A stretch of DNA of 64,000 bases from positions 864,001 through 928,000 of the forward strand of contig CAXXWQ010000003.1 in assembly GCA_963674945.2 (NCBI GenBank). The letters are read 5' to 3'. This DNA comes from an uncultured Desulfosarcina sp. (GTDB lineage Bacteria > Desulfobacterota > Desulfobacteria > Desulfobacterales > Desulfosarcinaceae). The position numbers and the translations under genes are program-made. Shown here in pieces: positions 1-19,548 of this stretch. Under the pieces are notes generated by a model that searched no databases, was not told the DNA's origin, and saw only the letters and a program-made list of their open reading frames with translations. The first letter of the stretch is position 1. Each line of letters starts with the position of its first letter.

Positions 1-776
1 CCGGCGGCATCCAGCTTATCCTTGTTCTCGTTTCCCAGCTTAACCAACGTATTGCTATACTCAGTCAACTGTTGATCGGACATCTTTTTGTAATCTTTCA
101 TGAAACCGTCGAGATTGGAACTTTTGGAGTCTTTCTTTTCAACCGCATTTTTCAAACCAGCAAGAGCAGGAGCAGCATTCTTATCCTTTCCGTCTTTTTT
201 GTTCTCCGATCCCTTGATATCGGAAGGATCAACAGTATAGCTCCCGGAGCCAACTTTCACATTTACCTTGCCGGGAGCCACATATTCGACCACCCCTTCG
301 ATCGACTTATCTGACGCCAACGCATCATACTTTCGAGGGTTGGTTATTGTGACTCTATCCCCTGGTTTGAAGGAACCCTCCTTCGAATCCGCCACCTTTG
401 CGGTGCCCGCATCCTTCGAATCGTGGTGTTCCAAATGATCGGCATGGAAGTCGACAGCATGTTTCTCTCCCTCAATCTTCCCCCGAACGACATCGTATTT
501 ATCCGAATACCCGGACACCTCCATGGTCTTGCCATGGTGCTTGCTCTTCGGATTGTTGACCTTTACCTTATGGCCTTTATGAAAAGACACGGCGACCTCA
601 TCCTTATGTCGCGCATCATCGTAATCTTTGATAAATTCCCGGCGACCAGTCTTGGGATTCACTCGAAAATGGGCTTTAATATGAGCCTTTATGAGATCCC
701 CACCAAGCAACCGACCAAGATCTTTGCAGTCACCAGTATCTATGCTTTTCGCCAACGCTTCATCGTATGCGCCCAT
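1..776 (-). CDS. Putative capsid-packaged protein, N-terminal part (runs off window start; absent from the ORF track)
   Basis: Hand translation MGAYDEALAKSIDTG...LIKAHIKAHFRVNPKTGRREFIKDYD...FHKGHKVKVNNPKSKHHGKTMEVSGYSDKYDVVR, open to base 1, AGGAG RBS upstream; paralogous to the N-terminus of the ORF starting at 18738. Confidence 0.85.
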   Translation of the reverse strand, partial: MGAYDEALAKSIDTGDCKDLGRLLGGDLIKAHIKAHFRVNPKTGRREFIKDYDDARHKDEVAVSFHKGHKVKVNNPKSKHHGKTMEVSGYSDKYDVVRGKIEGEKHAVDFHADHLEHHDSKDAGTAKVADSKEGSFKPGDRVTITNPRKYDALASDKSIEGVVEYVAPGKVNVKVGSGSYTVDPSDIKGSENKKDGKDKNAAPALAGLKNAVEKKDSKSSNLDGFMKDYKKMSDQQLTEYSNTLVKLGNENKDKLDAA

Positions 777-801
777 GATTGTTTTCTCCTATTGATTGAT
801 C

Positions 802-1455
802 CTACATTAAATACTCCAACTTGCAGACTGCCTGAATAGGAAGACGATAATGTTCAGGCGCTGGTTTCCGAAATTTAATATGCGTATCCCTAACGATGTG
901 AATATGTGATAGAACTCCCCATGATGGATGCATCCGATAAGCAACCGAAAAATATGCACCGGCCACCGGGCTCGTCCCCCCGGTCACCCACTGAATCTTG
1001 CCATTGGAAATCACATAATCCGTAACAGGTGCGTAAACCACACCACCCGGGCCGACCACACGCAAGATGTCAAGCATCGCAAAACGTGCAGTATCTTGCG
1101 TACCGCTACCCCGCGTAAGCAATTCTGAATAGGCGATCACCGATTTATTATTGACAATCCGATCATGGTAACCCAGTTCCACCTCAGCCTTGACCGTCAA
1201 ATTCATTGTTCCGATCAACATCCCGCCGGTGTCCATGAATTGTTTTTCCGTCGTAATACTGGTCATGATGCCCTGGATCTCTTCAGCCCCATAGTACTGC
1301 CATCCCCTATCGCAATAGAGGCAGTTCGGATCAGGATGACCAGTTTGCGAATCCAGACAAGGACACTGTATGGCGTGATAATGGGTAAAAAAATACCCAT
1401 GCTTTTCGATCATCTCATCGAAAGAGCCAACTCTGAAATCAACCCGGCCGGCCAT
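802..1455 (-). CDS. Putative neck/head-closure protein
   Basis: 217 aa with CPC...CxxC; position downstream of capsid and adaptor as in Twort-like phages. Confidence 0.6.
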   Translation of the reverse strand: MAGRVDFRVGSFDEMIEKHGYFFTHYHAIQCPCLDSQTGHPDPNCLYCDRGWQYYGAEEIQGIMTSITTEKQFMDTGGMLIGTMNLTVKAEVELGYHDRIVNNKSVIAYSELLTRGSGTQDTARFAMLDILRVVGPGGVVYAPVTDYVISNGKIQWVTGGTSPVAGAYFSVAYRMHPSWGVLSHIHIVRDTHIKFRKPAPEHYRLPIQAVCKLEYLM

Positions 1456-2192
1456 TATGCCACCGCCAATCGAATACCCTTGTACCGATCTCGAAGATTC
1501 GGCAATTGGGTTTTGATCTGTCGCTCGTATTGACGGATACGGGCACTGTATGCCGAGTTCTCGGCAGACTGGGTTGTTCCAATGCTTTCACTCAACCCGT
1601 CAATGGAAATGCTCTGGGACGCGATACCGGCACCAAGCAGAATATCACCCATAATGTTCATGACACCGATACACGCCTTCATGGCGATGATGTCAACGAT
1701 ATCGCCGGGCACAGCTTCATCTGCAAATCCGGCTGTGTAGTCGACTTTGAACAAATGCGGCATCTGTGTCAGCCGACTGGTGATCAGTGGCAGCAAGACA
1801 CCATTCCCCTGTCCCAACAGCACTTGCGACAGGCTCCCGGTGGTCGGCACCAATTGAAGCTGTCCTGAATTTTTATAGACGTGGATCCAGTCCGCGGGAA
1901 AAGTCATGACCGGCTGGCCCGCATACTCGGCGATCAGACTTTCAACACTGACCACCGGGTAATTGTAAAGCTGGATGTAACAAAATTCTTGATATTCATC
2001 GAGATGATAGTCATGCGTTTCGCTAATGGATGTCGGAGCAATCTTGATATGAAGCTCGTTCTCCAACCAGCTTACGCTTTTGGCAATCCATTTATCGATA
2101 TTTCTCGTCGGATATTCATTTCCATCATCATCGACGAGAGGAATGCCAAAAAGATAGTCTTGTTTTATATCTGCGGCTGTTGGAAGTTTCAT
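1455..2192 (-). CDS. Putative head-tail adaptor/neck protein
   Basis: 245 aa; YLFGI start, VDYTAGF, SISIDGLSESIGTTQSAENSAYSARI C-terminus resembling Twort-like neck proteins. Confidence 0.7.
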   Translation of the reverse strand: MKLPTAADIKQDYLFGIPLVDDDGNEYPTRNIDKWIAKSVSWLENELHIKIAPTSISETHDYHLDEYQEFCYIQLYNYPVVSVESLIAEYAGQPVMTFPADWIHVYKNSGQLQLVPTTGSLSQVLLGQGNGVLLPLITSRLTQMPHLFKVDYTAGFADEAVPGDIVDIIAMKACIGVMNIMGDILLGAGIASQSISIDGLSESIGTTQSAENSAYSARIRQYERQIKTQLPNLRDRYKGIRLAVA

Positions 2193-2211
2193 TCAAAATT
2201 GCTCCTTTCCA

Positions 2212-2694
2212 TTAACCGATGATTTTCTTGAACAGTGTCATTAGAAGAGTAAATAACCCACCCCCGATCAAACCATAGAACATGAGAGTGGCAGCCTGTT
2301 TTGCCTGAGTAACGCTTTGCCCTTGAACCTTTTCCGAGACAATCTTCAAATCAACTGCGGCGGCTTTATCAGAAAGACCAGACCTTAATTCGTCATAATT
2401 ACTTTTTAAATCCTTCGATTCAGCCTTTTTAACCAATGCGGCGCGGCAAACTTCCACATCGTTTTTTACAGTAATCAAATCATCTTTTGAACTTTTGGCA
2501 TTCGACACTTTTTCACATCGATCACGACAAGCTTGTTGTTGCGATCGAATTGTTTCGATCACTTTCCATTGTTCAAGGTCTTCTTCGTGAAGATGCGTTA
2601 ACTTCTCCCGGATATAATCCAGGGCCGCAGAAACGGTGCCACGCCATTCAACAAAACGAGTCAGTTCATTGAAATTGGAATTTTTTTCGCTCAT
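2212..2694 (-). CDS. Coiled-coil protein with C-terminal transmembrane helix
   Basis: 160 aa; hydrophobic C-terminal LMFYGLIGGGLFTLLMTLF. Confidence 0.6.
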   Translation of the reverse strand: MSEKNSNFNELTRFVEWRGTVSAALDYIREKLTHLHEEDLEQWKVIETIRSQQQACRDRCEKVSNAKSSKDDLITVKNDVEVCRAALVKKAESKDLKSNYDELRSGLSDKAAAVDLKIVSEKVQGQSVTQAKQAATLMFYGLIGGGLFTLLMTLFKKIIG

Positions 2695-2697
2695 TTC

Positions 2698-3120
2698 CTA
2701 TTGCATTGCCGGATCTGCTGGAACTGTCACCAAAACAGCCGCGCACTCATCGGTAATTGGAAAAATCGTATGTGACATCATCGGATTGATCGTCATACGG
2801 CGGCCTTTTGTAAGAATCGTTTTTCCATCTTGAGTTTCAATTTCGATGACCCCTTTACTACAGACAATCCATTTCTTTTGAGTATGGGTGACCGCAGGAA
2901 AGGGGTTATTGTCATGACGAGACCGCACAATGAAACCAACTGAGAAACCATCCAAGCCATGTGCCCAGATGTGAAAATCCCAGTCACCAGCCTCATGGAT
3001 ACTTTTGCCCTTGGTGACAACCAATCCAAGGGCAAAAAGAGTATCCAAATAACGAAGTTCGGGTTCAATTTCATTGATACGTTCGATCGCTTTATCCAAC
3101 GGATTTTTGTCCTTATTCAT
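2698..3120 (-). CDS. Cupin-domain protein
   Basis: Likely start MNKDKN at 3120; HTQKKWIVCSKGVIEI...INPMMSHTI cupin-like pattern. Confidence 0.55.
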   Translation of the reverse strand: MNKDKNPLDKAIERINEIEPELRYLDTLFALGLVVTKGKSIHEAGDWDFHIWAHGLDGFSVGFIVRSRHDNNPFPAVTHTQKKWIVCSKGVIEIETQDGKTILTKGRRMTINPMMSHTIFPITDECAAVLVTVPADPAMQ

Positions 3121-3487
3121 CGTTCGACGCCTTTTTTGGACGACCTTTCCGCCTGGTGATTGCTTTACCATTCTCAGTAATTGGATTACGGGTTCCCTCG
3201 ACTTTCTCCGGAGTAATTTCCTCAGCTCCTTCAGGACCGATTCCCTCGACTTTCTCCGGAGTAGGGATAACCACCTCCAGCTCCGTTTGTTCAGGGGTGG
3301 GAATGGTTGCCTCCGGCTCTTTCTTTTCCTCAAAAAAATCAAGAACGGTAAAACCATTCAATTTGCGAACATTTTGTGCAACCTCAGTCGGAACTGTGGC
3401 TACCCCATTTTCATCGTAATCGACGATATAAGAGCCAATTACGGCACCCTTGATTCCCTTGAAGGCCTCATTTTGGATTCTTGCCAT
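3113..3487 (-). CDS. Hypothetical phage protein with TPEKVEG repeat
   Basis: 124 aa, RBS; 23-bp direct repeat at 3193-3215 and 3241-3263. Confidence 0.65.
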   Translation of the reverse strand: MARIQNEAFKGIKGAVIGSYIVDYDENGVATVPTEVAQNVRKLNGFTVLDFFEEKKEPEATIPTPEQTELEVVIPTPEKVEGIGPEGAEEITPEKVEGTRNPITENGKAITRRKGRPKKASNDE

Positions 3488-3536
3488 AACATTCCCCTTT
3501 TCAACTATTTTATTGAATCATTGCTTGCCCACCGGA

Positions 3537-4118
3537 TCAGGCAATGGCGGCCGCCTGTTTCTCAAACAAGGTATCCGCTTCATAGAAAACGATATTGTCG
3601 TCTGCCACCAGAGAAGTTGTTCCGGGGCTCACAACCGTGGCGGCTTTTCCAACGACAGCCCAACCAAGAATGGCATGATCGGCGTTCGGAGCAACGGCTT
3701 GAATCGCAGCAAGTGCATCGGCGGCAGTATCATACCCGGCGGCGGCATTGGTTACTTCTATGAGATCCACGGTGCCGTTGATTCCCACCTCGAAACGCCA
3801 ACCATTGTATTTGCCGGATACCGTTGCCGCCAAAGCATCCGGGGCGACACCGGCGGCATTTGCAGCTAACCTGTACCCGACACCATTGATAAGATAATGA
3901 ACAAGATTGTGAGCGATATCGGTATTCGTTGTCCCTGGAGCAAGACCGACCACATGCAGGATTTCATCTCCCCCTGCCAAGGCCAATGCTGTTTGAAATT
4001 GATTGTTACTGGCAATCAAAGCGTCGATCAGATCGGAAACGCCCGCCTCTTTAAGTACGGGATCGTATTCTTTCAACAGTCTTTTTTGTATTGCGGTTAA
4101 TGCAGATAAAGTAGCCAT
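3537..4118 (-). CDS. Putative head decoration/structural protein
   Basis: 193 aa, Ala-rich, AGGAGG RBS, directly after the major capsid gene. Confidence 0.55.
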   Translation of the reverse strand: MATLSALTAIQKRLLKEYDPVLKEAGVSDLIDALIASNNQFQTALALAGGDEILHVVGLAPGTTNTDIAHNLVHYLINGVGYRLAANAAGVAPDALAATVSGKYNGWRFEVGINGTVDLIEVTNAAAGYDTAADALAAIQAVAPNADHAILGWAVVGKAATVVSPGTTSLVADDNIVFYEADTLFEKQAAAIA

Positions 4119-4140
4119 GATTTTCCTCCTACTTTTAGAA

Positions 4141-4177
4141 GAGAAAAGCCCAGGAGCCTACGCGACCCCCGGGCTTT
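4141..4177 (-). terminator. Probable intrinsic terminator after the major capsid gene
   Basis: AAAGCCC...GGGCTTT stem followed by a U-rich run on the minus strand. Confidence 0.55.
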
Positions 4178-4210
4178 CGGGTTAAAACCGGTTATTCACT
4201 CCGGGGCATA

Positions 4211-5650
4211 TTAAATGAGATCGACTTTCTCACTGCCTCCGACATTGATGAACTGTACCCATTTCTTGGGCGCATAGATGATGAAGGTCAAATAACAGAG
4301 AATCATCCATCGATATGCGGGAGCCAAGACAGCCAGATCCATTTTCATCAATGGAGCAAGCTGTTTGACAGCAAGAACCTGAGAACTCAACTCGCCAACG
4401 AAAGCCTTGGTGGTGCCGGCCATATTCTTGCCGGTATCATCCCAGGTCGTGGTGCCACTGCCAGCCTGACTGGTTGCTCGAACACGGGCGACCAACATTT
4501 TGACCGAACCACCGACTTTGGTCTTGTAGATATTGAAATACTCGGGTTCAATGGTAACCGAACCCGCATTTGTGATGGTGAACGGAATGTGTTTTGCCAC
4601 ATCATCGGAACCAACGGTAACCGGGGAACCGATGGCCACGGCGGCCGATTCACCGTACCGGTTAACGGCGGAAACGGCGTAATTGTAAACACCGGCACCG
4701 CCATGGGTTGTCCAGACACCATCGGTACCCGTCATCGATCCGGCCGCAATGGAGGCCGGGGGCGTCGGTGCTTTACCACTGGTTGCCGAAGCCGGCGCGA
4801 TTTTCCCAGCGTTCAAGAACACATCGGGATTCAGATTCACCTTACCGAAAGGCGTATTCACGTCGGGAATATTGGCGCCGACGGTATAACCACCCTGTCC
4901 GGTCGGCAGGGGCACACGCTCTTTGGGCAACATGGTGTCACAGAAGGCCTGATGGGCCGCAAAACTCAAGAATACATCCGTGGGATTCCCGTAGTTACTG
5001 GCGACCATCTGGGCGGCCAAGGAGAACGCACCTTCGGACAAAGCGGCGCCCTTGAGGTCGATGACATTGCCGGAATCGATCTGTTTCTCGATGCCATTGA
5101 ATTCCACACCCTCACGATGGGTGGAATCGGTGGCCGCTCCCAGATAACACATGTCGGCGTCGCCGTTGAGCAGACCCCACTCCAGATTTTTGAGAATCCA
5201 GAGAATACCGTTGGTGTTTTCCTGGGCCGTCACATCCCCGATATTGGTTTTTACCAAAGTCATGGGATGGGAAATGCTCCTGGTCGTACCCAGAAATTTC
5301 ACCAGGGAGGTCTGTCGGTTATAGGTGGAATCCACGGTTTCGGGCAGGGTTCCTTCGGGAAGAAAGGCTCCGCTCTCATCACCGACCGCCGACAACTGGT
5401 TAAACTCTTCGACGGTGGAGTACGCAGGCAGCTTGGGCACTCTTTGCCAGAAGGCACAGTGTTTGGCCTGATGGGTCAGAACCTTCAAAGAGGCTTCCAG
5501 GGACTCGACACGCAATGCCCCACCACCGGAAACGGGCGGATTGTCATAGCCGGCGGTCAGAGCTTTGTTGAGATCCTCGACTTCCCGCATGCTGGTGAAT
5601 CCCATGGTATGGATATCTTCATACTGGGCAAGGGTGATAATATCGTTCAT
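4211..5650 (-). CDS. Major capsid protein (Twort/SPO1-like)
   Basis: 479 aa; LNKALTAGY...GGALRVESLE, STVEEF, QLAPLMKMDLA...APKKWV motifs; follows protease and scaffold. Confidence 0.9.
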   Translation of the reverse strand: MNDIITLAQYEDIHTMGFTSMREVEDLNKALTAGYDNPPVSGGGALRVESLEASLKVLTHQAKHCAFWQRVPKLPAYSTVEEFNQLSAVGDESGAFLPEGTLPETVDSTYNRQTSLVKFLGTTRSISHPMTLVKTNIGDVTAQENTNGILWILKNLEWGLLNGDADMCYLGAATDSTHREGVEFNGIEKQIDSGNVIDLKGAALSEGAFSLAAQMVASNYGNPTDVFLSFAAHQAFCDTMLPKERVPLPTGQGGYTVGANIPDVNTPFGKVNLNPDVFLNAGKIAPASATSGKAPTPPASIAAGSMTGTDGVWTTHGGAGVYNYAVSAVNRYGESAAVAIGSPVTVGSDDVAKHIPFTITNAGSVTIEPEYFNIYKTKVGGSVKMLVARVRATSQAGSGTTTWDDTGKNMAGTTKAFVGELSSQVLAVKQLAPLMKMDLAVLAPAYRWMILCYLTFIIYAPKKWVQFINVGGSEKVDLI

Positions 5651-5674
5651 TTTAAGATCCTCCTAATAATTGGT

Positions 5675-5686
5675 GTAATTAATTAC
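5675..5686. promoter_or_regulatory. Palindrome GTAATTAATTAC upstream of the major capsid gene
   Basis: Perfect 12-bp palindrome recurring across the window. Confidence 0.75.
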
Positions 5687-5707
5687 TTTGTTTTAAAGCG
5701 AAATTTT

Positions 5708-6505
5708 TTACTCGCTGGTGAGTTTTTTGATCAAATGCGGCGAAAGTGAACCACCGGACTCGAATCTGACGATATCCATGGATGTCACAGCCGGATCACC
5801 CCTCTCAAACATCGATGTCAGGGACTTGAGGATTTGATCTTTGCTCATCTCTTTTTTTTCACCCTCACCACCCTCGAAAGACTTCTGTAAAACTGTGGTT
5901 TTAGACTTCGGAGTCCGAAGAGGTTGCTTGGCCAATTCATTGTTCAAGGCTTCCACGGACTTGCGAAGGTCTTCGGTCTGACGATCCGTTCGATCCGCTA
6001 CGGACTGAAAAGACTTCTTCAATGTATCGACGATGGAAAGGGCAATATTCTGATTAGCCTCGGTGGCCTTGAACAGACTCTTCTCGATGGCGTCAAGCCT
6101 CTCAGTTTGCGCCTGACGGATTCCATCGATGGCCTCGCCGACTTTATCGACAAGGGCGGCCAAGAAATCACTCACTTCGACGGCTTTTTGGATATCCTCA
6201 TTGTCGTTAATGAGATCTTCCGTGAAAGGACTGTCTTCGGAACCGGCTTCGGCGCTTTGACTTTTCTCGACACCTTCATCGTCGTTTCCATCTTCATCTT
6301 CATCTTCATCGCCATCGCCGCTTTTTTCCAGGTCGCCGCCGCAGCCCTTGTCCAAATCCTCGATGCCACCATCGGTTTGACTCTTTTCCAAATCCTCGTT
6401 CTCTCCATCACCCGATGGAATCAGTCCTTTGGCGAGTTTTTCAAGCTCATCCAAAGCCGCGAAGAAAGAATTTTCGGGGATGGCTTTTTCTTTTTGTTCA
6501 AGCAT
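5708..6505 (-). CDS. Capsid scaffolding protein
   Basis: Acidic and helical, many LEKS/IEKS/LRKS/LQKS motifs; between protease and capsid; start MLEQKEK after AAGGAGG. Confidence 0.75.
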   Translation of the reverse strand: MLEQKEKAIPENSFFAALDELEKLAKGLIPSGDGENEDLEKSQTDGGIEDLDKGCGGDLEKSGDGDEDEDEDGNDDEGVEKSQSAEAGSEDSPFTEDLINDNEDIQKAVEVSDFLAALVDKVGEAIDGIRQAQTERLDAIEKSLFKATEANQNIALSIVDTLKKSFQSVADRTDRQTEDLRKSVEALNNELAKQPLRTPKSKTTVLQKSFEGGEGEKKEMSKDQILKSLTSMFERGDPAVTSMDIVRFESGGSLSPHLIKKLTSE

Positions 6506-6521
6506 GATTACCTCCTTGTAA

Positions 6522-7415
6522 TTATGATTTGACACTTGCCAAAAATTTCTGCATGACAGAATTGAAAACCATTTGTACCAACCGTCTGGCTTTTTCCTCG
6601 GAATAGCCTCTTTCTTTCATCAGACGTTCAATGGCTTCTTTTTCAGTGATTTCGCCGCCGGCTCCAGGCATATCCAAATTGGTAAGCCCTTCTTCGATAG
6701 ATTCTTTACGAAGCGCAGACCCTCCGCTTTGCGGTGGATTCTGATTTCCGGCTTCCATCATTTTGGCCAGATCTCCAGACATTTTTTCCGGACCACGAGA
6801 AAAAATCTTTCTGAAAGCCGATAATATGACGTTCTCCATCCGCTCCCAGTACCCCAAAGGTTCGGGCTCCTTGGGTGTCTCTTCCTCATCTTCAACGTAA
6901 CCGTTGACTTCAATGTCGTTGGAAATACTTTTGATCACATCAAGGAAAGTATCGGGGTGCATCGGCTCGGCGGTGATGGCGATATCTTTGATCCAGCTTC
7001 TCTTGACGATCTTGCCGTCTCTTTTGAGTGTTTTTCCTTCGACACTGAGACCAAGCCGACGATCACTGCCAGATTTTTGCAGAGCATCGGCAAGTTCAAC
7101 GATACCTTGGGCGCGAGGCGTGTCGAACAGATATCCTCTAACCCTCAAACCTTCAGGGGTAACCGCAGCTTCTGTAGGCACACCAACTTTCCCGTCGGTC
7201 GTCTTGGAATGGTTGTCGTTGAAATAACCCCGGGAGAGAAGATACGAAAGATCCATCCCAGCCAAAATCACCGTCTCACCAACAAGGTCAGGGGACTCGA
7301 CGGAAGCGACACCATCGATCCAGGTTTTTCCGTCCTTTCCCTTTTTCAGATCGAGCGGAACATGAAACCGGAACGATCCGTCATCGTGAATGCCTAATGG
7401 TATTTGTGATTCCAT
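6522..7415 (-). CDS. Prohead maturation protease
   Basis: GVAS..PDLVGE, FNDNH, GLSVEG, AITAEP motifs of HK97/Twort-type prohead proteases. Confidence 0.85.
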   Translation of the reverse strand: MESQIPLGIHDDGSFRFHVPLDLKKGKDGKTWIDGVASVESPDLVGETVILAGMDLSYLLSRGYFNDNHSKTTDGKVGVPTEAAVTPEGLRVRGYLFDTPRAQGIVELADALQKSGSDRRLGLSVEGKTLKRDGKIVKRSWIKDIAITAEPMHPDTFLDVIKSISNDIEVNGYVEDEEETPKEPEPLGYWERMENVILSAFRKIFSRGPEKMSGDLAKMMEAGNQNPPQSGGSALRKESIEEGLTNLDMPGAGGEITEKEAIERLMKERGYSEEKARRLVQMVFNSVMQKFLASVKS

Positions 7416-7430
7416 GGTTTTGGCCTTTCC

Positions 7431-7481
7431 AAATAAAAAAGGGAGTAAAAGAGATGCACGAATGCACCCGATTACTCCCTT
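7431..7481 (-). terminator. Terminator-like hairpin in the leader of the protease-scaffold-capsid genes
   Basis: AAGGGAGTAA (7439-7448) pairs with TTACTCCCTT (7472-7481); U-tract follows on the minus strand. Confidence 0.6.
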
Positions 7482-7597
7482 AAAAACGAAGCTTAACGCC
7501 GCCCGTCTGGCAGCACCAAATTTTATCCGAACCTATTATTCGCTGTTACATTTCGAAAAACCTCTTTTAAAATACAAAAGAAGAAACGCTTTTCAAT

Positions 7598-7609
7598 GTA
7601 ATTAATTAC
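7598..7609. promoter_or_regulatory. Palindrome GTAATTAATTAC
   Basis: Perfect copy upstream of the protease leader. Confidence 0.75.
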
Positions 7610-8242: not shown

Positions 8243-9082
8243 TTATTTACCCTTGGGCTTTTTGAAAACGATTCGACCATCGTTATCGAACTCATGAAGT
8301 TTTGGATTGAAATATGCCACTTCACAGAAACAGTGAGGATGAAGGGGTGGAAGCCCCGGTGCCCGCCGGATCTCCGCAGCCGTCCGGTCGACGTTGTTCC
8401 TGGCGGCTAAATCGGCAAGTTTGAATACTCGTGGTTTTCCCCTCAACAGAAAAGCCGATCGACAGAGATCACAACAATCCGGGTGCGGGCGGACAATCAC
8501 GCAGGACTCAGCCCCGAACTGTTTTGTAATGCCATGGGCGATGCCATTTGTCCGGGCGCCATGCAATTCAGTATTGACGATCCGGTGCCAATCCCTTTGG
8601 ACATCTTCGGTCGCCCGCCGTAGCAAAGCGATCATCTCTCCCCGGGCTTTCCTCTCCCGGGCCGCATTCGACATTGTTTCCTGAATAATCCCCCGCATGG
8701 CCGTTTCCTTGGCCGCATCCTGAACGATCCTCAACGTAGTCGATTCGATCCGGTTCCCCAGGCCCTGGCAATAAAGGGCAGCCGAATCATTCAACCATTT
8801 GATTGAAGCCTTTTCGATATCGCTCAATGGCAGCCGGCGAATGGTATCCTTGATCATGTCAAAAGACGCCCCGGCCAGCCTCGGGTCCAGTGAACTGAGC
8901 ACACCGAATAAATAGGCATCAGCGACGGCGCTATCCGGTACGGATGGATCGATAATACCTGCCGCCTGGAGTTTGCGAATATCGATTCCAGATGGAGGGC
9001 TGCCGGTAAATTGATAGATGGCGATCCCCACATGCTCCCGGATGATTCGGGCGATTTCTTCGATCTGTTCTTTATTCAGCAT
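8243..9082 (-). CDS. MuF-like minor head protein
   Basis: RIVNTE, HPDCCDLC and PPLHPHCFC motifs. Confidence 0.75.
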   Translation of the reverse strand: MLNKEQIEEIARIIREHVGIAIYQFTGSPPSGIDIRKLQAAGIIDPSVPDSAVADAYLFGVLSSLDPRLAGASFDMIKDTIRRLPLSDIEKASIKWLNDSAALYCQGLGNRIESTTLRIVQDAAKETAMRGIIQETMSNAARERKARGEMIALLRRATEDVQRDWHRIVNTELHGARTNGIAHGITKQFGAESCVIVRPHPDCCDLCRSAFLLRGKPRVFKLADLAARNNVDRTAAEIRRAPGLPPLHPHCFCEVAYFNPKLHEFDNDGRIVFKKPKGK

Positions 9083-10144: not shown

Positions 10145-12226
10145 TTAAATATCCACCGTTTTCCTTTCCCGGGCAAGGTTTCTGGAAGCCGCTTGCCTCT
10201 GAGCCTCTTTTTCTCTTTCCTCATTGGCGATCGCCGCTTTGATCGGCTTTTCGACATCGAACCGCGAAGGCAGATTTAAAGCCGCAGCCCGCTTCCCGGA
10301 AAAGACCGATGCAGGCAACCTTTCTTTAAACCAAGCCGTCAACGCCTTCGATCCGGTTTCCCAAAGCCTTCGGGGAAGCATCGTATGATATTTGGACGGA
10401 ACCGCTGAACCGGCCAAAATCCGATCGCCGATTTGCATAATCGTCGGAGCGTCCTTGGGCGCTATTCCCAACCTTATCATTTGGGCCGCATATTCCGCCC
10501 GATGATCCGGTTTCTTCATTTCCGTTCGCACTTCCTTTATCACTCTCTCATCCTTCGGATGAACCGGTGCGAGCTTTCTTTTCCGCTCCATCGCGCTTCT
10601 CAGCGAAACATCCTTTTTCAATGTTGCTTTGAAATCGGGATAACTCGACGCCTCGGCCTTGAACGCTTCCTTGATTCGCTCCAATTCCTTCGGTAACAGC
10701 ACTGTTTCAATAGTGGAGGTCGCATACGGTTTCATGGTCTTCGGATTGTAAACATAACCGGCCAGCTCTTCGGCTGCCTGCCTTCGCGTAAGCGTTGCTT
10801 GAAATACGCCGATACCGGTCCATCGTTTCATAACATCGAGAATCTTTTGATCTTCATAAAGCCAACTCATCAAATCCGCTTCATCGGCAAGACCTTCCTC
10901 CAAGAGTATAGCCTCTTCCTTCGAAACAAATGGCGAAGCGATGATGTCATTCGAATCACCGGCTAAGAACTCATCGACCGCCGTCTTGTCAATAGACGAT
11001 AACGGACTCTTTTTATCCGTATCGTCCGGTAAAAAATCATCACGAACGGTAGACATCTCCCTTTCATGAATCTTTACCGCTTCACTCCGGGCGTACGAAC
11101 GTGCATATTGCCGCAACCGCTCTTCAATCCCGCTTCCCTCGCCCAACAAAGGTTCGTAGCTGGCCACAGCCTTAACCAAAGCATCAATGAAAGTCGCAGG
11201 TGTGACATCCCCTTCAGTAACGCTGGGATATTTCATAGTTGTCGCGGACACTGTTTTTTCGAGCATCGGCCAATGTTCAGCCAGAATCCGCCGGGCAATA
11301 TCTTCATCTTCCTTGGTTGCTTGTCGGTAACCGCCGGCGGCGTACTTGAAATGGCCTTTCCGATGCAATTCCCCAGTTTCCAGCTCGATACTTAACGGTT
11401 TACCAACAGCTTTAGGATTATGTAACCGTGGAACCCGCTCATATTTCTGATTTTTTAGTGTGGATTGAAGAAGACTGTCTCCGATGGTTTTCGTAATAGT
11501 TGTCTTTATCCCCGGAACATGAAAATCAACCTCATATTCCATTTTGGTGCCAACCTTTCGCGTAGATTTCACAACAAAAACCCTACCATCCGGGCGTCGA
11601 TATGTTCCTCCGACCGTTAGTTTAGTCTTTTCCTCTGCAACCCGCTCCTGGATGGTTTTCTTCCGCTCCTTGTCTTTGTAATACATTTCGTAATCGCCAC
11701 GATCGACCAGAGTGGTTTCACCCTTTGCATTGGTCACCTCGACAGTTTTACGTTCGACCACTTTCTTTGTAACATCATTGGCCCGATGAACCAGTTCGAT
11801 GTGGTTGACATTCATGGTCTTGGCTTCATGCTTCCCGGTCTTTGGATTGAGAAAAGCAACCGACACCCTCGGCGAAGGACCCGCAATAGACCCGCGGAAA
11901 ACCCCCTCACGCCCCTTTTCGCTGCCCCAGGTTATCTTCACTTTGTCGCCTTCAGAAAACCGCACCATATCCTTGCTATCAATTACATGATCCCGTTTAA
12001 TATCCTCGTGATGATCCTTTTCCTCTCCTTCACGATGATGGACTACCCGAGTCAATTTCGGCTTTTTCCCGGCATCCGGCTTCACCCAATAGATCCGTTC
12101 GACCCCATCCTTTCCAACGATCTTTTTCGGGACCAGATTAGTAAAATACCCGTGTTTGAACCCGGCCTTCTCCAAAAGCAGTTCATCCACTGACACGACT
12201 ACAAAATTCGACGCATCAAGGAACAT
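10145..12226 (-). CDS. Putative capsid-packaged protein with KOW/SH3-like and degenerate sigma70-like regions
   Basis: LLEKAG N-terminal motif; FSEGDKVKITWG KOW-like; region-2-like ARRILAEHWPML...ALVKAVASYEP; region-4-like TLTRRQAAEEL. Confidence 0.5.
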   Translation of the reverse strand: MFLDASNFVVVSVDELLLEKAGFKHGYFTNLVPKKIVGKDGVERIYWVKPDAGKKPKLTRVVHHREGEEKDHHEDIKRDHVIDSKDMVRFSEGDKVKITWGSEKGREGVFRGSIAGPSPRVSVAFLNPKTGKHEAKTMNVNHIELVHRANDVTKKVVERKTVEVTNAKGETTLVDRGDYEMYYKDKERKKTIQERVAEEKTKLTVGGTYRRPDGRVFVVKSTRKVGTKMEYEVDFHVPGIKTTITKTIGDSLLQSTLKNQKYERVPRLHNPKAVGKPLSIELETGELHRKGHFKYAAGGYRQATKEDEDIARRILAEHWPMLEKTVSATTMKYPSVTEGDVTPATFIDALVKAVASYEPLLGEGSGIEERLRQYARSYARSEAVKIHEREMSTVRDDFLPDDTDKKSPLSSIDKTAVDEFLAGDSNDIIASPFVSKEEAILLEEGLADEADLMSWLYEDQKILDVMKRWTGIGVFQATLTRRQAAEELAGYVYNPKTMKPYATSTIETVLLPKELERIKEAFKAEASSYPDFKATLKKDVSLRSAMERKRKLAPVHPKDERVIKEVRTEMKKPDHRAEYAAQMIRLGIAPKDAPTIMQIGDRILAGSAVPSKYHTMLPRRLWETGSKALTAWFKERLPASVFSGKRAAALNLPSRFDVEKPIKAAIANEEREKEAQRQAASRNLARERKTVDI

Positions 12227-12246
12227 ATCTCAACCTCCGCATAAAA

Positions 12247-12258
12247 GTAATTAATTAC
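12247..12258. promoter_or_regulatory. Palindrome GTAATTAATTAC
   Basis: Perfect copy about 20 bp upstream of the 693-aa gene. Confidence 0.75.
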
Positions 12259-13021
12259 TTGGATTTATAGGTAAAATTAACTGTTTTTCTTTCAATTCAC
12301 CAGTATCAGCACTGGGTGATCGTGACTTCAGATCGTCAATGGCATCAAGCACCTCTTTCGGGTCCCGGCCGGAAGCCTTCACATCCGCCTGGTGGAGAGC
12401 AAGCAATGGTTCGAAATGTTCATGTGCCATGAATTTTCGCGCATCTCTTTCGCCCGATCGGAGAAACTTGGTCCGCAGGTTCCCATGGTGGAGAACCAGG
12501 TGCCTGATCTCCTTTTTATCATCACGGGAGAAACCCAGGCGATCCAAAACCTTTCCCACCATTTTGTAGCCGGCGTACTCATGGCCATCGAAGACAATAC
12601 CGCGATCGGGATCTGCCTTTTGGGTTTCCGCCTTTCCGATGTCATGCAGCAAAGCCGCCCACCGCACGTTATCGCTGGCATCCGCCGGCAAATGTTTGAT
12701 GACCTGCATCGTATGATCAAACGCATCCCGGTAAGGGTGATGGGCGCCCTGCTCCACCCCGTACAAGGTGACCACCTCGGGCAGAGAATTCATGAAGCCG
12801 CCGGTCTTGATCTTCGTCTCCAGCTCTTTCAACCCATCCGGGCTTTGAAGCAGTTTCGTCACGGTTTCCCGGATCTTCACCATCCCCTTGTCAGGTGCAA
12901 CGAAATGACGAACCTTTTGTTTCGATGAATGAGAACCCCTTTTATCCCGCTTGTCATCGTGCTCTTTGACGACCTGGAGCTTTCCCTGCCGATATCGAGT
13001 GTATTGCTTAACGTGGGACAT
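12251..13021 (-). CDS. HD-domain phosphohydrolase (CCA-enzyme-type HD) with N-terminal SHVKQYTR motif
   Basis: EQGAHHP..DAFDHT, WAALLHDIGK, GHE, HH, AD metal-binding pattern. Confidence 0.8.
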   Translation of the reverse strand: MSHVKQYTRYRQGKLQVVKEHDDKRDKRGSHSSKQKVRHFVAPDKGMVKIRETVTKLLQSPDGLKELETKIKTGGFMNSLPEVVTLYGVEQGAHHPYRDAFDHTMQVIKHLPADASDNVRWAALLHDIGKAETQKADPDRGIVFDGHEYAGYKMVGKVLDRLGFSRDDKKEIRHLVLHHGNLRTKFLRSGERDARKFMAHEHFEPLLALHQADVKASGRDPKEVLDAIDDLKSRSPSADTGELKEKQLILPINPSN

Positions 13022-13030
13022 AAACCTCCG

Positions 13031-13324
13031 CTACTTCTTGACGATGAATTTCCTCGATCGGCGTTCGTCTTCCATGGGAATTGCCTTTCGGCGTTTTTCG
13101 ACAAATTCCCATGGACTCGAAATGGTAACCATGTCACCGTCTTTGACCGTCGAATCCTCGTACTGGCACTCAACGCCTTGATTTTGAATCGTACCGGCAA
13201 AAAGAGGACAGGCAGCACAGTAATTTTTCTGATGTGTTTCATCCAAAACGGCAACCTGCCTGAGATATTCACAATAGATTTGATTATTCAAATCGGGATA
13301 GTTCAAATGCAGAACGTTTTTCAT
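13031..13324 (-). CDS. Small Cys-rich hypothetical protein
   Basis: 97 aa, YCAACP, GGGGG RBS. Confidence 0.6.
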   Translation of the reverse strand: MKNVLHLNYPDLNNQIYCEYLRQVAVLDETHQKNYCAACPLFAGTIQNQGVECQYEDSTVKDGDMVTISSPWEFVEKRRKAIPMEDERRSRKFIVKK

Positions 13325-13852
13325 GCTTTCCCCCTTACGGCCGACTGGTGTTACCGAATCGATCCGTCAATTCCAGATCAACCCAATACATCGGAATGAC
13401 GCCATTCGGATCTTTGACAACATGTTCATCATTCACCACGGCGCTGCTGTATCCTGGGACCATTTTTCCTTTTGGAGCAAAAATCGAATCTGCCTTGGTG
13501 ATATCTGCTATTTCATGCCTTTTACTGTTCGACGCACCAGTGGATTTATCGTGCACCTTGCCCAAGGAAATTTTATTGATCAAAAAGACCCCGCGGGTCC
13601 CGGGTTGCCTGGTCACATGACAATCCCCTTTGAGATATTGCGCAGATTTGGAACTCATGTCTGTGACATACACACCCCCGCCAAGCATCCCACCGCTTGA
13701 AGCCCGGTACGCAGACTTCACGATACCGGCTGCAGCAGCAAAATTGGTGGAATGGTAACCGAACATGATATTGTCTCGATCTTTTTCAATTCTCTTGAAT
13801 TTATCGTACTGATCCATGCCTCCAATCTGATAAATGCCATGAACCTTAAAAT

Positions 13853-16308
13853 CAGGAAACTTGATTTCCTAATTGTTGCATATGGCAAGCAAAACATAAT
13901 GTAAGTGGTTGAAAAACAGAAAGATAGGAGTCTGAATCCAGCAGGCCGGTAAGGTATTGCAACCGGAAAATGAACATGGCACCTTTAACCTTATTATCTT
14001 GGCGGATAAATGAAAGGAAAAGGATGCCATGCCTCAACAGATACTACCACTTATTCCTCGGGGTGCAAGACAAATCAACGGGCTTGTCAGTGTATTTCGT
14101 GACGATACGACCTGGACCTATTTTCTATCGACCGTTCCGATTTATTCTCACAGACAAGGCGATCAACGAATGTTTCGGATGATAACAGCCCAACTGGTTG
14201 AATCCGGAGCTTGCCGCCAGATCGATATCCAAAACACATTCGGCGTATCCAAGAGCAATGTCATCCGATCCGTGAACAAACTCAGGTCCGGCGGCGCCGA
14301 GGCATTTTTCGTTCAGCGGCGGGGACGACGCGGCGGCAAGGTTTTCAAACCTGAGGTGCTTGAACAAGCCCAACGTTTACTGGATCAAGGGTGCTCGAAA
14401 AAAGATGCCGCCCTGGAACTTGGCATTAAATACGATACGTTTCGCAAAGCTATAGATGATGGTCGGTTAATCGAATCAAGGATTGGTGAACCGTGTCTAA
14501 CCAAATCAGATCGGGACATGGTCGACATGGCTGCTGCCGATGGTATGGGGACGGCTTGCAACCGAGTCGGGGAACGCATATTGGCATCATTGGGCAAAAT
14601 GGTTGGTGCGCCGGTTCGTTTTGACAGATGCCTGGACGTTCCCAAAGCAGGCGTTCTTTGTGCGATACCGTCATTGGTGGCAAACGGGTTGTTTACCGGC
14701 GCAAAACAGTTCCTCGGCCAAGTCAAAGGCTATTACACGATCTTTCATGTCTTGTTGCTGCTTTCGTTTATGGCCTTATGCAGGATCAAGACGACAGAAA
14801 AAATACGAGGCCATGCTCCGGGAGAATTTGGTAAGTTATTGGGCTTGGATCGTGCACCGGAGGTTCGCTGTTTGCGTTACAAGATGGATGCGTTGAGCGC
14901 AGACCACGGCGCGGAAAAGTGGGCCGCATACCTCGGTAAATACTGGATGGAACAGGCGCCCGAATCGGTTGGCGCGCTTTATGTTGACGGGCATGTACGT
15001 GTTTATCATGGAAAATTGACCCGACTACCGCGCCGCTACGTGTCCCGGGAACGATTGTGCATGAGGGGCATTACCGACTATTGGGTTAACGATGCGATTG
15101 GCCGACCTTTTTTTGTCGTCGAAAAGCAGATCGATCCTGGATTATTGGCGGTTTTAAGAGACGATATCGTTCCCCGGTTGTTGCAAGACGTTCCGAATCA
15201 ACCCGGTTTGCAGCAACTACAAGAGAACCCATGTTTATGCCGGTTCGTTCTTGTTTTCGACAGGGAAGGATATAGTCCCGCATTCTTCAAGGAAATGTGG
15301 GATCGCCATCGAATCGGCTGCATGACGTATCATAAGCATCCTGGTGAATCATGGCCGGAGCATTGGTTCACCGAGTATGAAGTTGCGATGCCAAACAAAG
15401 AGGTGGTGAAGATGCGGCTTTGCGAAATGGGTAGTTTGGTGGGATCTGGTAAGGGTGCAACATGGATGCGACAAGTGCGAAAACTGACCGATTCCGGACA
15501 CCAGACCAGCGTAATCAGCACCGCTTTCGATTTGCCGCATACTCAATTGGCAGCACGCATGTTCAGCCGGTGGTGTCAGGAAAACTTTTTCAACTATATG
15601 ATGCAACATTTTGATATCGATGTGCTTTTAGATTATGGTGTCGTTGAATTTCCTGATACCGAACGGGTAATCAACCCCGTTTGGCGGCAATTGAATCAAT
15701 CCCGTAATTCGTTGCAGAACAAGCTACGATATCGTCGTGCCTGTTTTGCCGAGATGACCATTCACCCTGAAAATGAAGACAAACCGGTAAAGTTTAAGAA
15801 GTGGATAGAGAAAAAGGCCGAGCTGTTAGAAGAAATCGAAAAGATGGAGTATCAACTCAGCGAGTTGAAAGAAAAACGAAAACAGACAAGTAAACACATC
15901 ACGTGGGGAGAACTTGAAGCAAAAGATAAATTTTTACGTTTACAACCGGGCAGAAAACGCCTGATGGACACGGTTCGTATGATTGCATATCGTGCAGAGA
16001 CGGCAATGGTTGGGTTGCTCACGGGTCCGACGGTAAACTCGTCGGATGCACGGAGTCTTCTCCAGACACTGTTCCAGACCGAAGGCGATGTACTGCCCGA
16101 TATTGAAAATCAGCAATTGAATATACGATTGCACGGCGCTTCGTTCCCAGCGGCCAATCGGGCTCTTTGCCAACTGTTTGCGCATCTGAACAGTGCGCAG
16201 GTAAAATACCCCGGTACCGAGCTGCAAATGATATTCGAACTAAATGGCTGCAGCACCTCAAATCATGCCGGAGGTGTCACATAGTTTTCCCGGAGATGCA
16301 GTGTTCTG
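13853..16308 (+). mobile_element. 2456-bp insertion sequence, copy 1 (family unassigned)
   Basis: Near-identical to 52978-55433; ends CAGGAAAC...GTGTTCTG; 5-bp target duplication AAAAT at 13848-13852 and 16309-16313. Confidence 0.95.
14029..16284 (+). CDS. Transposase (751 aa, DDE-like)
   Basis: Sole long ORF of the repeated element; YVDGH, VFDREG and RWCQENFF motifs. Confidence 0.9.
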   Translation: MPQQILPLIPRGARQINGLVSVFRDDTTWTYFLSTVPIYSHRQGDQRMFRMITAQLVESGACRQIDIQNTFGVSKSNVIRSVNKLRSGGAEAFFVQRRGRRGGKVFKPEVLEQAQRLLDQGCSKKDAALELGIKYDTFRKAIDDGRLIESRIGEPCLTKSDRDMVDMAAADGMGTACNRVGERILASLGKMVGAPVRFDRCLDVPKAGVLCAIPSLVANGLFTGAKQFLGQVKGYYTIFHVLLLLSFMALCRIKTTEKIRGHAPGEFGKLLGLDRAPEVRCLRYKMDALSADHGAEKWAAYLGKYWMEQAPESVGALYVDGHVRVYHGKLTRLPRRYVSRERLCMRGITDYWVNDAIGRPFFVVEKQIDPGLLAVLRDDIVPRLLQDVPNQPGLQQLQENPCLCRFVLVFDREGYSPAFFKEMWDRHRIGCMTYHKHPGESWPEHWFTEYEVAMPNKEVVKMRLCEMGSLVGSGKGATWMRQVRKLTDSGHQTSVISTAFDLPHTQLAARMFSRWCQENFFNYMMQHFDIDVLLDYGVVEFPDTERVINPVWRQLNQSRNSLQNKLRYRRACFAEMTIHPENEDKPVKFKKWIEKKAELLEEIEKMEYQLSELKEKRKQTSKHITWGELEAKDKFLRLQPGRKRLMDTVRMIAYRAETAMVGLLTGPTVNSSDARSLLQTLFQTEGDVLPDIENQQLNIRLHGASFPAANRALCQLFAHLNSAQVKYPGTELQMIFELNGCSTSNHAGGVT

Positions 16309-18756
16309 AAAATAGAATCCACCATGGGCCTTTTTATCCCACCGATTTTCAATCTTCTTCATGATGAAATCGTGAGTCTTTTGGTCAACCGATTTAAAAG
16401 TGCACCCCAGATTATTTGGCGGCGGCTCCCCTTGATTTTTGGCAGGAGCATTTACATCCACCCCTTTTGCCTTGAGCTTTTTCTGCTTCTCGACCTCTTT
16501 CCAATATCTCTTGGACATCTGATCGACGACGCCATCATAGGAGCCAGATTTTCTAGCGATCTTCATGCCGATAGCCCGGGGACCTTCCTTATCCATCAAC
16601 CCTTTGGGAAAAACTCGAGCCGTGAATTCACGGTCGTAATTTTTCGATATTCTCGTAGAGCCCTCTTTGGCAACATAATTTGCCGCAAACTGATCCCGCA
16701 TCATGTCATTGGCCTGAATCTTTTCATCGACCTTATCACTCATGGATTCAGTCACTTTTGTTGCCAGCGAAATATCAAAAATTTCAGTATGAGTTCTCCA
16801 ATGATTTGTCGGATCCGGTTTAGAACCATCTGCAAGCAGATATTGAACCAAATCATGATGTTCACTTATCCAATAGCTGCTACGATTGAACATGTTTCTT
16901 ATTATACTGTTTCTGTTATAATGAGACCCAAAATTACCCACCACTTCTTTGACAATACTGCTCTTTAACTCCAAATGATTCATGTACGAATCGGTATTGT
17001 AAATTTTTGCTCCTGGTTTTGTTTTTGTCGACGGATTATCGGCGATAAATTTTTCATAGCCGGTAAGAAAATCCCTTAATGTCATCTGGTCAGCCGGCTT
17101 GCCAAAGTCTGGGCCGGCCATGGCGTGCATCAAAGTTAAACATGAATCATGATCAAACCTGGGCGCATGATCCAGTAAAGAGTAATGCTTCAAAGTATTT
17201 GAGACATTACTGTCGAGATGAACATGATCCTCCATTTGTTCAGAGAAGCCTCCGGTGACCTTTTTGGAAATACGTTTATATGTATATTCAAGCACATGAT
17301 TGATCACATCAAAAGCCTTATGCTCTCGACCCTTTTCCGCCATACTCTTCAAATCAGTTTGGATATCTTCGATATGTGGCTTGACGTCTTTGTCATAATC
17401 GTATCCGGCCTTTTCCCAATCATCCTTGCTGTAGAACGCAAAACCAACCAGGTTACTTGAAACCTCCGGATCATTTATCGACCAATCATTAGGCGGCCGA
17501 TAAGCCAAAATTTTGAATGAACGCCGGCTGTACCTTGAATTCAAATCAGAATTCACCCATTGCGGAACCGTATAACCAGTTCGAGTTTTAATCCCATACC
17601 AGCTCCCATTGCTTTTGTTGTAACCTTGATAACTTGACCGCCCACTGCTGCCCCTTTTGGCCGTAATCAATTGAAGATTCTTTTCGATGTACTCGGCAGC
17701 AGCAGGATCCAGCGGAACCATGCCAGTGACCTTGGCTATAGATCGCTGTTTCTCGGTTGAATATTTCCAAGCCTCCCTTTTATCGTGAGGAAAATCCTGG
17801 GCCGTTTTGATAGGTTCAACCTTTTTCGGCTCCGGTTTCGCATCGGGTTTGATATCGACTGCAGGTGTATTGCCTGGGGTCAACGACGGCTGCCCGGACA
17901 AATTGACCAATGCCTTCGGACTTGCATCGGTATAAGTTCCATCATCCAGCTTCATTCGAACGACATCGTATTTGTCGGAATAGGAAGTGACCACTCCCTC
18001 TTTATCATGATGCTTGCTGCGAGGATTGCTGATGCGAACCTTGTCACCCGGATCGAAAGTGGTTTTGGGAGGTGCCGCCGGAGCCGGTTTACTATCCGGA
18101 GCTGCACTTTTGGCTTTTTTCGGTGTTTGGTTCTGGGCCCGCTTAATCAATTCGGCTTCGATCTTCTTGGCAACATCCCTTTTGTCTTGGCTGTTTGCCC
18201 ACTCCAGAAGTGCACGCATGAAATTGTAAAGCTTCTGGTCGCCCTTGATTTTCCCGATCCGGGCTTCCAATTGCTTGGCATCCATTCCCTCGACACGTTG
18301 CTTTTCATGCTTCATGTCATTATGAACGAAAGACACCCCAACCAGGCCAAGGGCCAGCTTTGCACCATCCAGATCCGTCACCCCGGGCGCCGGCGTAGCG
18401 GCGGGCGCCGTCGGCGCTGCCGCCGGTGTGGGAGCCGCACCCGTATGGGGTTCAAGTAAATGAGGCTCGAAATCGGCCGTATGACTCTTCCCGGGGATCT
18501 CCAGTCGGATGACATCGTATTTGTCAGAGTAATGCTTAACCTTCATCACCTGGTCATGGAATTTGCTCCGAGGATTATTCACTCGGACCATATGCCCCTG
18601 GTGAAACTCGGCATCCGCCTTGCCATGGATCTTCGAATCATAATCTTTGATATGAATCAGTTTTCCGGTTTTCGGATCTCTTCGGAAATGAGATTTCACA
18701 TGGGCTTTTTCAAGATCGATGGTGATGTAATGGCGCATACCCCCCCCTCCATCATT

Positions 18757-18768
18757 GTAATTAATTAC
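18757..18768. promoter_or_regulatory. Palindrome GTAATTAATTAC
   Basis: Perfect copy upstream of the PARP-like gene. Confidence 0.75.
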
Positions 18769-18792
18769 TTTTGCCAGATGATAAAAAAATAG

Positions 18793-19548
18793 TTACACGA
18801 ATAAGACACACAGTACGTCTCTTCGACAGTTGGACCTCTCCATCCCATCCAAATCGAGGGCTTTCTTTATTGACTCCTTGAGACGGTCATACTCAGCCTT
18901 GATCTTGTCGCGCTCCGGACCAGCCTTTGAATGGGCCAGAATTTCCTCCAGGTTCTCCAGATAATCAGCTTTCGAAATACGAAATTTACTGGCACATCGA
19001 CAAGGTTTTTCACTCCCACAGGCAGAGCAAATTGTATTGTATTTTTGAAGATAATCCGACTTGCTCAACCCGGTGAAAGACAATGACTTGATCATCCCCT
19101 TGGACTGAATGGCAAGGCGCTGCTTAAAGACTGACATGTCCATCTCGGTCATCCCACCGAACAACTTTTGGCCGATCTTGTCGTAATTCGCCATGAAGGC
19201 CGCTTTCGCATCTTCCTTGGAATCGAAACAAAGAAAAACCTTATCCTCGTCGAACTTCCCATTGTCAGCCCGGTTCATGTGGACCACGAAAACTCTCTCA
19301 GAACCCCGTGACGGCCCGATAAAGCAATCGATATGATCATCGTCGGCACCCTTTCGCCGAACCTCATCAGAAAGACGGATATACCCGTAAGCATGCTTCA
19401 TTTTGGTTCGCCACTCGTGGCCATCCTTATCGACACCTTTGCGGACAGATCCCTTGCGATTCTCGATCGAAATATTCAGTCCTTGAAAATCCGTCCGCCC
19501 TTGGAGCTTATAGGCTTTTTTTTCAAGATCGATGATCAATTTTGTCAT
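18793..19548 (-). CDS. Inorganic-pyrophosphatase-like (InPase) domain protein of the type seen in phage polyvalent proteins
   Basis: ISIENRKGSVRKG.D.DG..W...M...YGYI, GADDDHIDCFIG, FDEDKV motifs; start MTKLIIDLEKKA. Confidence 0.75.
   Translation of the reverse strand: MTKLIIDLEKKAYKLQGRTDFQGLNISIENRKGSVRKGVDKDGHEWRTKMKHAYGYIRLSDEVRRKGADDDHIDCFIGPSRGSERVFVVHMNRADNGKFDEDKVFLCFDSKEDAKAAFMANYDKIGQKLFGGMTEMDMSVFKQRLAIQSKGMIKSLSFTGLSKSDYLQKYNTICSACGSEKPCRCASKFRISKADYLENLEEILAHSKAGPERDKIKAEYDRLKESIKKALDLDGMERSNCRRDVLCVLFV

Follow-up and report, generated by a model that had tools for sequence, protein, structure and literature searches.

Protease-matured head cargo is already known, and so are polyvalent proteins (the papers given by identifier are cited from their accessible parts). 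In T4, a capsid targeting sequence (CTS) on IPI-III and Alt is removed by the prohead protease gp21 (PMC9026906), and in SPN3US and phiKZ a three-residue motif marks where a single prohead protease cuts numerous internal head proteins (PMC10052503, PMC9026906). Polyvalent proteins (Iyer et al. 2017) were described from head-gene contexts, with predicted injection and an analogy to polyproteins (PMC5512222). MuF polymorphic toxins carry variable enzyme domains in the head (PMC9503650, PMC12226406) and packaged ADP-ribosyltransferases (ARTs) have been predicted in myoviruses (PMC9503650). Here we describe a stretch of 64,000 nucleotides (the window, C3:864001-928000, where C3 is contig CAXXWQ010000003.1) within the 7.08-Mb genome of an uncultured Desulfosarcina sp. 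It holds the head cluster of a prophage in which several genes share a unit made of a predicted protease cut site, hydrophobic-x-Lys followed by Ser or Ala, and a basic hairpin of ~24 residues.

The locus resembles the T4 system in its common N-terminal sequence on unrelated head proteins, an ADP-ribosyltransferase in the cargo and a protease that would also process scaffold and capsid. It differs in that T4's 10 conserved residues are removed and the cut follows Glu, whereas here the leader is variable or missing, the 24 conserved residues would remain on the product, the cut is predicted after Lys and the unit is repeated in polyproteins. One T4 hallmark, a cargo cut site that is also the motif of the scaffold and the capsid N-terminus, is found here as a sequence pattern, and the other, a conserved tag that is itself the removed propeptide, is not. 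Cuts in SPN3US and phiKZ also follow Glu and remove propeptides, and no retained common header is described in the accessible parts of those papers. Domains of the InPase, ART-PolyVal, ddrB-ParB, SNF2, PBECR, LPD1 and DarA-C families, as well as the head-gene context, are shared with the polyvalent proteins. Their processing, however, is assigned in PMC5512222 mainly to embedded zincin metallopeptidases (about 36% of members), the accessible parts of that paper name neither the hairpin nor the K-[SA] sites, and the units in the window are mostly separate genes. With the MuF toxins the locus has in common variable enzyme domains, here predicted to be carried in the head, and five related loci contain MuF-like fusions, but most cargo here is not fused to MuF and in the fusions the cut site and hairpin lie between carrier and cargo. 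No description of a retained header, or of prohead-protease processing of these polyproteins, was found in the literature or in Pfam, with subscription journals and supplements outside the coverage. The contribution made here lies in a Lys-to-Glu switch before the hairpin, its insertion in tail-completion proteins and the cultured phages in which it could be tested.

We propose, with confidence a little above even, that these are capsid-borne enzymes cut by the prohead protease after hydrophobic-x-Lys, and that each product starts with a basic hairpin which probably binds the packaged DNA. That the cargo is both cut and packaged we regard as quite probable.

Results

Coordinates below refer to the window; features given with two dots lie on its minus strand unless stated otherwise. 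ORF776 (3..776) is the 5' part of a 560-aa gene that lies past the neck genes and extends beyond the window. Its N-terminus aligns with that of a PARP gene (5' part 16311..18738) over 92 aa (53% identity, E 6e-31 for the pair), in agreement with the roughly 90 aa claimed in a first-pass annotation of this DNA. The first part of the shared module is the basic segment, modelled as a β-hairpin. The second half is a KOW-like unit that recurs inside PARP (47% over 51 aa; KOW 1 about 18445-18606, KOW 2 about 17905-18057), as had also been noted, and both copies are modelled as SH3/KOW barrels in an intact relative (NusG KOW Z 9.6, rmsd 1.5 Å, 54 residues). The ORF776 hairpin, assigned from sequence to residues 31-53 (618..686), stands immediately after LIK, and that of PARP (18637-18705) follows LEK-A. 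In the HD phosphohydrolase (12251..13021), the hairpin (12947-13018) opens the protein directly after Met, with no leader. The N-terminus reads M-SHVKQY and orthologues in two related phages start in the same way, which upholds the earlier suggestion that HD begins where the others would start after the cut; the same N-terminus would be reached through Met removal. A profile of the module matches exactly three places in the 7.08-Mb genome (ORF776, PARP and HD) and three of 201 genomes, namely the window genome, a syntenic prophage and, weakly, a non-phage contig. We regard the KOW barrel as a local addition of this clade that lies outside the general signal.

The cut site was defined as a hydrophobic residue, any residue, Lys and then Ser or Ala ([LIVMF]xK[SA], here K-[SA]), with cleavage predicted after Lys; it is a sequence pattern only. 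The scaffold protein (5708..6535; phrog_15087) contains 10 such sites where 1.0 is expected (p<=0.0005, 2000 shuffles), so the motif does fill the scaffold as proposed. Among 27 window proteins tested it is the only one enriched, apart from InPase, weakly. Scaffolds of nine other K-type phages, most of them identified by position, are site-enriched (eight at p<=0.0005, the ninth at p 0.018), as are the SPO1 scaffold (11 sites versus 1.1 expected) and those of three cultured Gram-negative phages. Of 27 head-region ORFs, 9 have a site of this type within their first 40 residues, compared with 10 of 111 other prophage ORFs. In the major capsid protein (4211..5650; SPO1/Herelleviridae type, phrog_752 E 1.5e-106), a maturation cut is predicted at LNK-A (residues 27-30, 5561-5572) from alignment to PDB 5LII/9ROW. 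LNK-A aligns with VVK-S of 5LII (463 aa), and 9ROW is the same sequence with 439 aa, an offset of exactly 24. Lacking these 24 N-terminal residues, 9ROW fits a mature capsid that starts after Lys (a deposited sequence, no cleavage assay). The alignment thus agrees with the claim that the motif precedes the mature capsid N-terminus, and comparative evidence supports cleavage after hydrophobic-x-K by the prohead protease (6522..7415; phrog_1028 E 7.7e-43) well. The capsid of Listeria phage A511 is reportedly cleaved after Lys-23.

A profile search of 1.84 billion representatives gave 202 matches, 150 of them listed; 152 proteins were taken forward and 21 were removed by hand as repeat-protein false positives, leaving 131. 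Among the matches listed, a hairpin-only profile finds at least 231 copies in these 131 proteins, up to five per protein. K precedes 220 of the 231 copies and 113 of the 119 internal ones (background K 11%), where the 220/231 is biased upward because the first query included the upstream K. As an unbiased check, a DNA pattern for the hairpin alone, with no upstream residue, was used; it gave 33 matches in 27 IMG/VR stretches, 22 of them distinct, and all 22 distinct viral copies follow hydrophobic-x-K-[SA]. The fetched locus contains a head gene for 20 of the 22 copies by tblastn and for one more by blastp.

Nearly all hairpins lie outside Pfam domains (112 of 113 in 59 Pfam-annotated proteins), and their mean net charge is +4.1. 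The units that they separate include InPase, ART-PolyVal, PARP, SAM lyase, zeta kinase, ParB, TopoIB and SNF2 helicase. Relatives hold several disparate enzyme domains per polypeptide, such as the InPase-helicase fusion of G085; by Pfam the window cargo proteins have one enzyme domain each and they are not fused to the MuF-like protein. Further K-[SA] sites are enriched in the linkers (169 versus 120 expected), and in five other loci a MuF-like homologue continues into cut site, hairpin and cargo, two with a PBECR3 nuclease. Since the hairpin recurs inside polyproteins and after a MuF-like domain, cut site and hairpin appear to form a conserved unit that heads each predicted cleavage product rather than only each gene. 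Polyvalent proteins of this kind are likely to be polyproteins cut by the prohead protease, with products that keep the hairpin. No embedded zincin metallopeptidase was matched by Pfam in 132 hit proteins and 24 locus proteins, a search that divergent copies could escape. At E<=10, none of 11 test pieces brought up a Pfam family that spans the hairpin, a protein atlas search with it gave no usable match, and a pattern for a five-residue-loop hairpin found nothing.

This layout bears on a different role for the hairpin, with or without its leader, as a packaging address recognised by scaffold, portal, MuF or another protein of the prohead. It does head many different genes of one head cluster, is leaderless in HD and in about six genes of L045/L119, and in its long-loop form is nearly confined to head clusters; T4 also loads its cargo by a common N-terminal tag (PMC9026906). 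The T4 tag, however, is the removed part, whereas the conserved part here follows the cut. An address would be superfluous in internal copies and in those that stand behind MuF-like domains, and the same hairpin occurs with unrelated head proteins (in phage G001) and in tail-completion and signal-peptide proteins. We consider an address unlikely, though it deserves some weight. The first-pass annotation had proposed such a packaging signal, matured by the protease; for a hairpin that crosses unrelated head types this role is not favoured. The conserved element stands after the cut and would be retained, and is thus not a removed packaging leader of the T4 type. The leaderless genes of L045/L119 (G002) are head-cluster genes, one of them ParB-like, and the G002 scaffold has few K-[SA] sites (3 versus 0.6).

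The residue before the hairpin is not always Lys. A looser pattern gave 75 stretches with 53 distinct copies: 21 are K-type, 19 to 20 are insertions in tail-completion-like proteins, one is E-type and the rest are mixed, several at the very start of genes. The E-type copy belongs to phage G001, whose portal and capsid are unrelated to those of the window phage. There, seven of seven hairpin copies (in six head/neck genes) follow hydrophobic-x-E, six with A next and one with K, and the protease-scaffold has 7 E-sites versus 2.4 expected (p 0.0085), with 2 K-sites versus 1.9. Hydrophobic-x-E also precedes three of three copies in P0101, and Leu three of three in P0090; a search for the loci of P0101 (E-type) and P0090 (possibly Leu-type) did not find them. 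The residue before the hairpin thus follows the scaffold motif of the phage and is not part of the hairpin. It would track the likely specificity of the protease, and we see in this the best argument for cleavage.

The switch also bears on the view that the proteins are unpackaged, late cytoplasmic nucleic-acid-binding enzymes in which K-[SA] belongs to the motif or is left over by inheritance. Such a view would accommodate a hairpin family that is broad and not head-specific, sites that are not avoided inside domains and KOW barrels common to ORF776 and PARP through simple duplication. It is hard to reconcile with the change from K to E alongside the scaffold motif, with the absence of K in tail-completion and signal-peptide copies, and with domains that are those predicted to be virion-delivered in PMC5512222. 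We judge it highly improbable.

Outside the head cargo, the similar hairpin of the tail-completion-like proteins (family confirmed for one) is inserted internally. This family contacts the DNA end in phage 80alpha (10.1101/2024.12.10.627806), and the SPP1 tail completion protein is required to route DNA into the cell (PMC11099176). The SPP1 case lends some appeal to the hairpin as an ejection leader, an N-terminus that is free and weakly folded and would thread the unit through portal and tail or engage a host factor. The hairpin is always N-terminal in the predicted product, via the cut or Met removal, and its low model confidence suggests flexibility. Against an ejection leader stand the internal position in tail-completion proteins and the cargo that has no hairpin (InPase and the sigma-like protein), and we hold it to be decidedly unlikely.

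A short-loop form of the hairpin was found in 105 stretches, of which 80 were fetched, giving 46 distinct copies. It stands, as VxGYxRKDGTYVxPHxR, directly after apparent signal peptides in many small proteins (L133, L135, L136, L154, L165, L168 and others). Given these many contexts, the hairpin is a motif of wide occurrence, and the link to heads holds only for its combination with the cut site. Occurrence mainly outside head gene clusters, which the first-pass annotation had named as telling against its proposal, is partly seen for the hairpin motif but not for the site-plus-hairpin unit.

Cultured examples were reached via portal homologues. The short-loop unit stands on a NUDIX protein of phages ECML-606-1 (E. 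coli), fHe-Yen8-01 and Jeremy, and the NUDIX gene is adjoined by a large ADP-ribosyltransferase-like gene that opens with a K-A site. In ECML-606-1 the two proteins are WCD43996 (NUDIX) and WCD43998 (ART-like). The LK-A-hairpin NUDIX and ART-like genes are annotated 'particle associated' in the fHe-Yen8-01 record; a literature search on this label found no paper. No match to the long-loop profile was found in four cultured-phage loci, the SPO1 head region included, and none to the module or the 37-aa hairpin by tblastn against 50,697 cultured phage records. A scan of 185,579 genomes gave seven matches, five judged chance by frame and context and two in large phage-like genes, one of these without K.

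The cargo genes of the window follow the order InPase, PARP, small Cys-rich gene, HD, sigma-like that is seen in the intact relatives L005 and G085. A modular, head-associated enzyme set, as first envisaged, is well supported by comparative evidence, but within the clade the InPase-PARP-HD-sigma order is conserved and not freely swapped; swapping appears at the level of the wider family. ORF776 has a leader with LAK-S and LIK-A sites, the hairpin and several KOW-like units; no enzyme domain was found in it. The 5' part of PARP comprises LEK-A, hairpin, both KOW units and a helical middle. Its 3' part (13335..13851; PF00644) is a PARP-like ADP-ribosyltransferase with the catalytic residues H-Y-E visible in sequence, an identity that the model of the intact relative P0003 also indicates (Foldseek E 3e-11, Z 17 to PARP1). 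Intact PARP relatives have 965-970 aa. The gene is split by an insertion sequence on the plus strand (13852..16310; 751-aa transposase, 5-bp target duplication, 27 further copies in the genome), which the first-pass annotation had not mentioned. HD is of the CCA-enzyme-associated type (PF01966; TIGR02692 partial, E 1.9e-19), and between PARP and HD there is always a small Cys-rich protein (13031..13324), for which a search for a function found none.

InPase (18793..19548; polyvalent-protein type, PF18823 E 2.9e-41) and the sigma-like protein (10145..12226) had been said to carry the LEK motif too. The site is present in both, in InPase as LEKK-A (19513-19527) and in the sigma-like protein as LEK-A (12164-12175), but neither has a hairpin of this type and a single site is not significant. 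InPase has four K-[SA] sites versus 1.1 expected (p 0.02), including further ones near the C-terminus. In L005, P0005 and P0008 the InPase C-terminus has a K-S site and then an HV-rich hydrophobic tail that looks like the N-terminal leaders and may be the actual loading signal. The sigma-like protein has three sites versus 2.6 expected, which is not significant; LEK-A is kept in seven of eight homologues that reach the N-terminus. Its model has two SH3/KOW-like barrels and sigma region-2-like helices, with residues 274-393 giving Z 6-7 to many sigma factors. The protein has a protein-atlas lead of 0.87-0.88 but no Pfam match, and the whole model has no significant Foldseek match. At residues 32-48, after a K-[SA] site, it shows a different hairpin-like header (LVPKKIxGKDGVERIxWV), and P0105 has a GARGGKYW-type header, likewise after a K-[SA] site; several header classes may exist.

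The prophage spans ~140 kb, about C3:822,000-963,600, and is interrupted by several insertion sequences; its bounds come from gene content and are approximate, as a search for an attachment site found none. A minus-strand cluster holds terminase, portal, protease, scaffold, capsid, neck and contractile-tail genes, with the portal protein (27807..29444; LAK-A at residues 20-23) at the upstream end. The nearest cultured records are SPO1-like phages (capsid identity 44-49% to SPO1/SP-10-like phages, portal 36-40%), and the head type is, by this comparison, SPO1/Herelleviridae-like. Herelleviridae are lytic phages of Bacillota; the window element is integrated and shares only the head type. The C-terminal part of the protease resembles the N-terminal arm of the capsid protein (LAK-MMEAG..SGGSALR versus LNK-ALTAG..SGGGALR, E 7e-6), also in relatives. 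The protein at 8243..9082 we tentatively take to be a MuF-like minor head protein from its position and Cys/His C-terminus; PHROG/Pfam-type searches gave no family match that would confirm this and hhalign to a PHROG-241 protein only 15%. Co-folding of this protein with the module was uninformative, with a score of 0.00.

Within the head cluster there are also a HicB antitoxin with a small upstream gene (19683-20259) and a patatin-like phospholipase (25464-26420). Before the terminase, positions 44010-48349 hold genes for QueC, a QueE-like radical SAM protein, QueD/PTPS, FolE and a QueF-like protein, plus ParB-like and HD genes; these 7-deazaguanine pathway genes suggest that the phage DNA is modified. 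Left of the prophage lies a CRISPR-Cas locus (C3:808000-822000) with a 28-bp repeat, 103 spacers and cas-like genes, presumably of type I-F. None of the 103 spacers matches the prophage, and one agrees at 30 of 32 bases with two further sites elsewhere in the genome.

Discussion

The proposal builds on the head-cluster location, the shared unit, its coupling to the scaffold motif and the domain identities. Precursors would enter the prohead together with the scaffold. The protease responsible for breaking down the scaffold and trimming the capsid would also cut the cargo, taking short leaders off and splitting multi-enzyme polyproteins. The exposed hairpin would then grip the DNA, so that the units stay in the head as fragments of the scaffold exit, and then accompany the genome; this is the weakest step. 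Once in the cell, to judge from their domain families, the products would ADP-ribosylate targets, hydrolyse nucleotides or pyrophosphate, cleave SAM or redirect transcription. The hairpin is probably a DNA tether. We favour this over an address and an ejection leader because the hairpin is basic and retained, occurs once in each product, does not depend on the type of head and has been inserted into a protein family in contact with the DNA end.

Several points weigh against the proposal. The cut, packaging, ejection and DNA binding are all predictions from sequence. The hairpin is modelled at low confidence (pLDDT about 50), and since InPase and the sigma-like protein do not have it, it cannot be essential to all presumed cargo. 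Only 12 of the 46 distinct short-loop copies stand after K-[SAG]; many of the rest come after apparent signal peptides or at the end of membrane or other proteins, and for the signal-peptide and membrane-protein copies a DNA role is not obvious. The first count of Lys before the hairpin carries its upward bias, K-[SA] sites are not depleted within cargo domains (30 versus 32.9 expected), and the E-type coupling comes from one phage record and one orphan protein. The 'particle associated' label of fHe-Yen8-01 extends to terminase and methyltransferases, and is thus weak evidence of virion presence.

At stake are the way in which large virion-borne polyvalent proteins yield their separate working units, and the means by which internal head proteins are retained and let go. 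If the proposal is true, a short sequence rule would show for many uncultured phages how these proteins are processed and which enzymes are injected, and would provide candidate anti-defence proteins (ADP-ribosyltransferases, SAM lyases, nucleotide hydrolases and a sigma-like factor). The switch from Lys to Glu is a sharp prediction, and a version of the tag exists in a cultured phage, ECML-606-1 of E. coli. Tentatively, and with more doubt than belief, we raise the idea that the 24-residue hairpin is a general handle for retention and co-ejection, which unrelated phages set behind their own protease site (Lys, Glu, perhaps Leu). Were this so, polyvalent proteins would be polyproteins programmed for cutting by the protease, their injected products could be deduced from sequence, and the tag could bring chosen proteins into bacteria.

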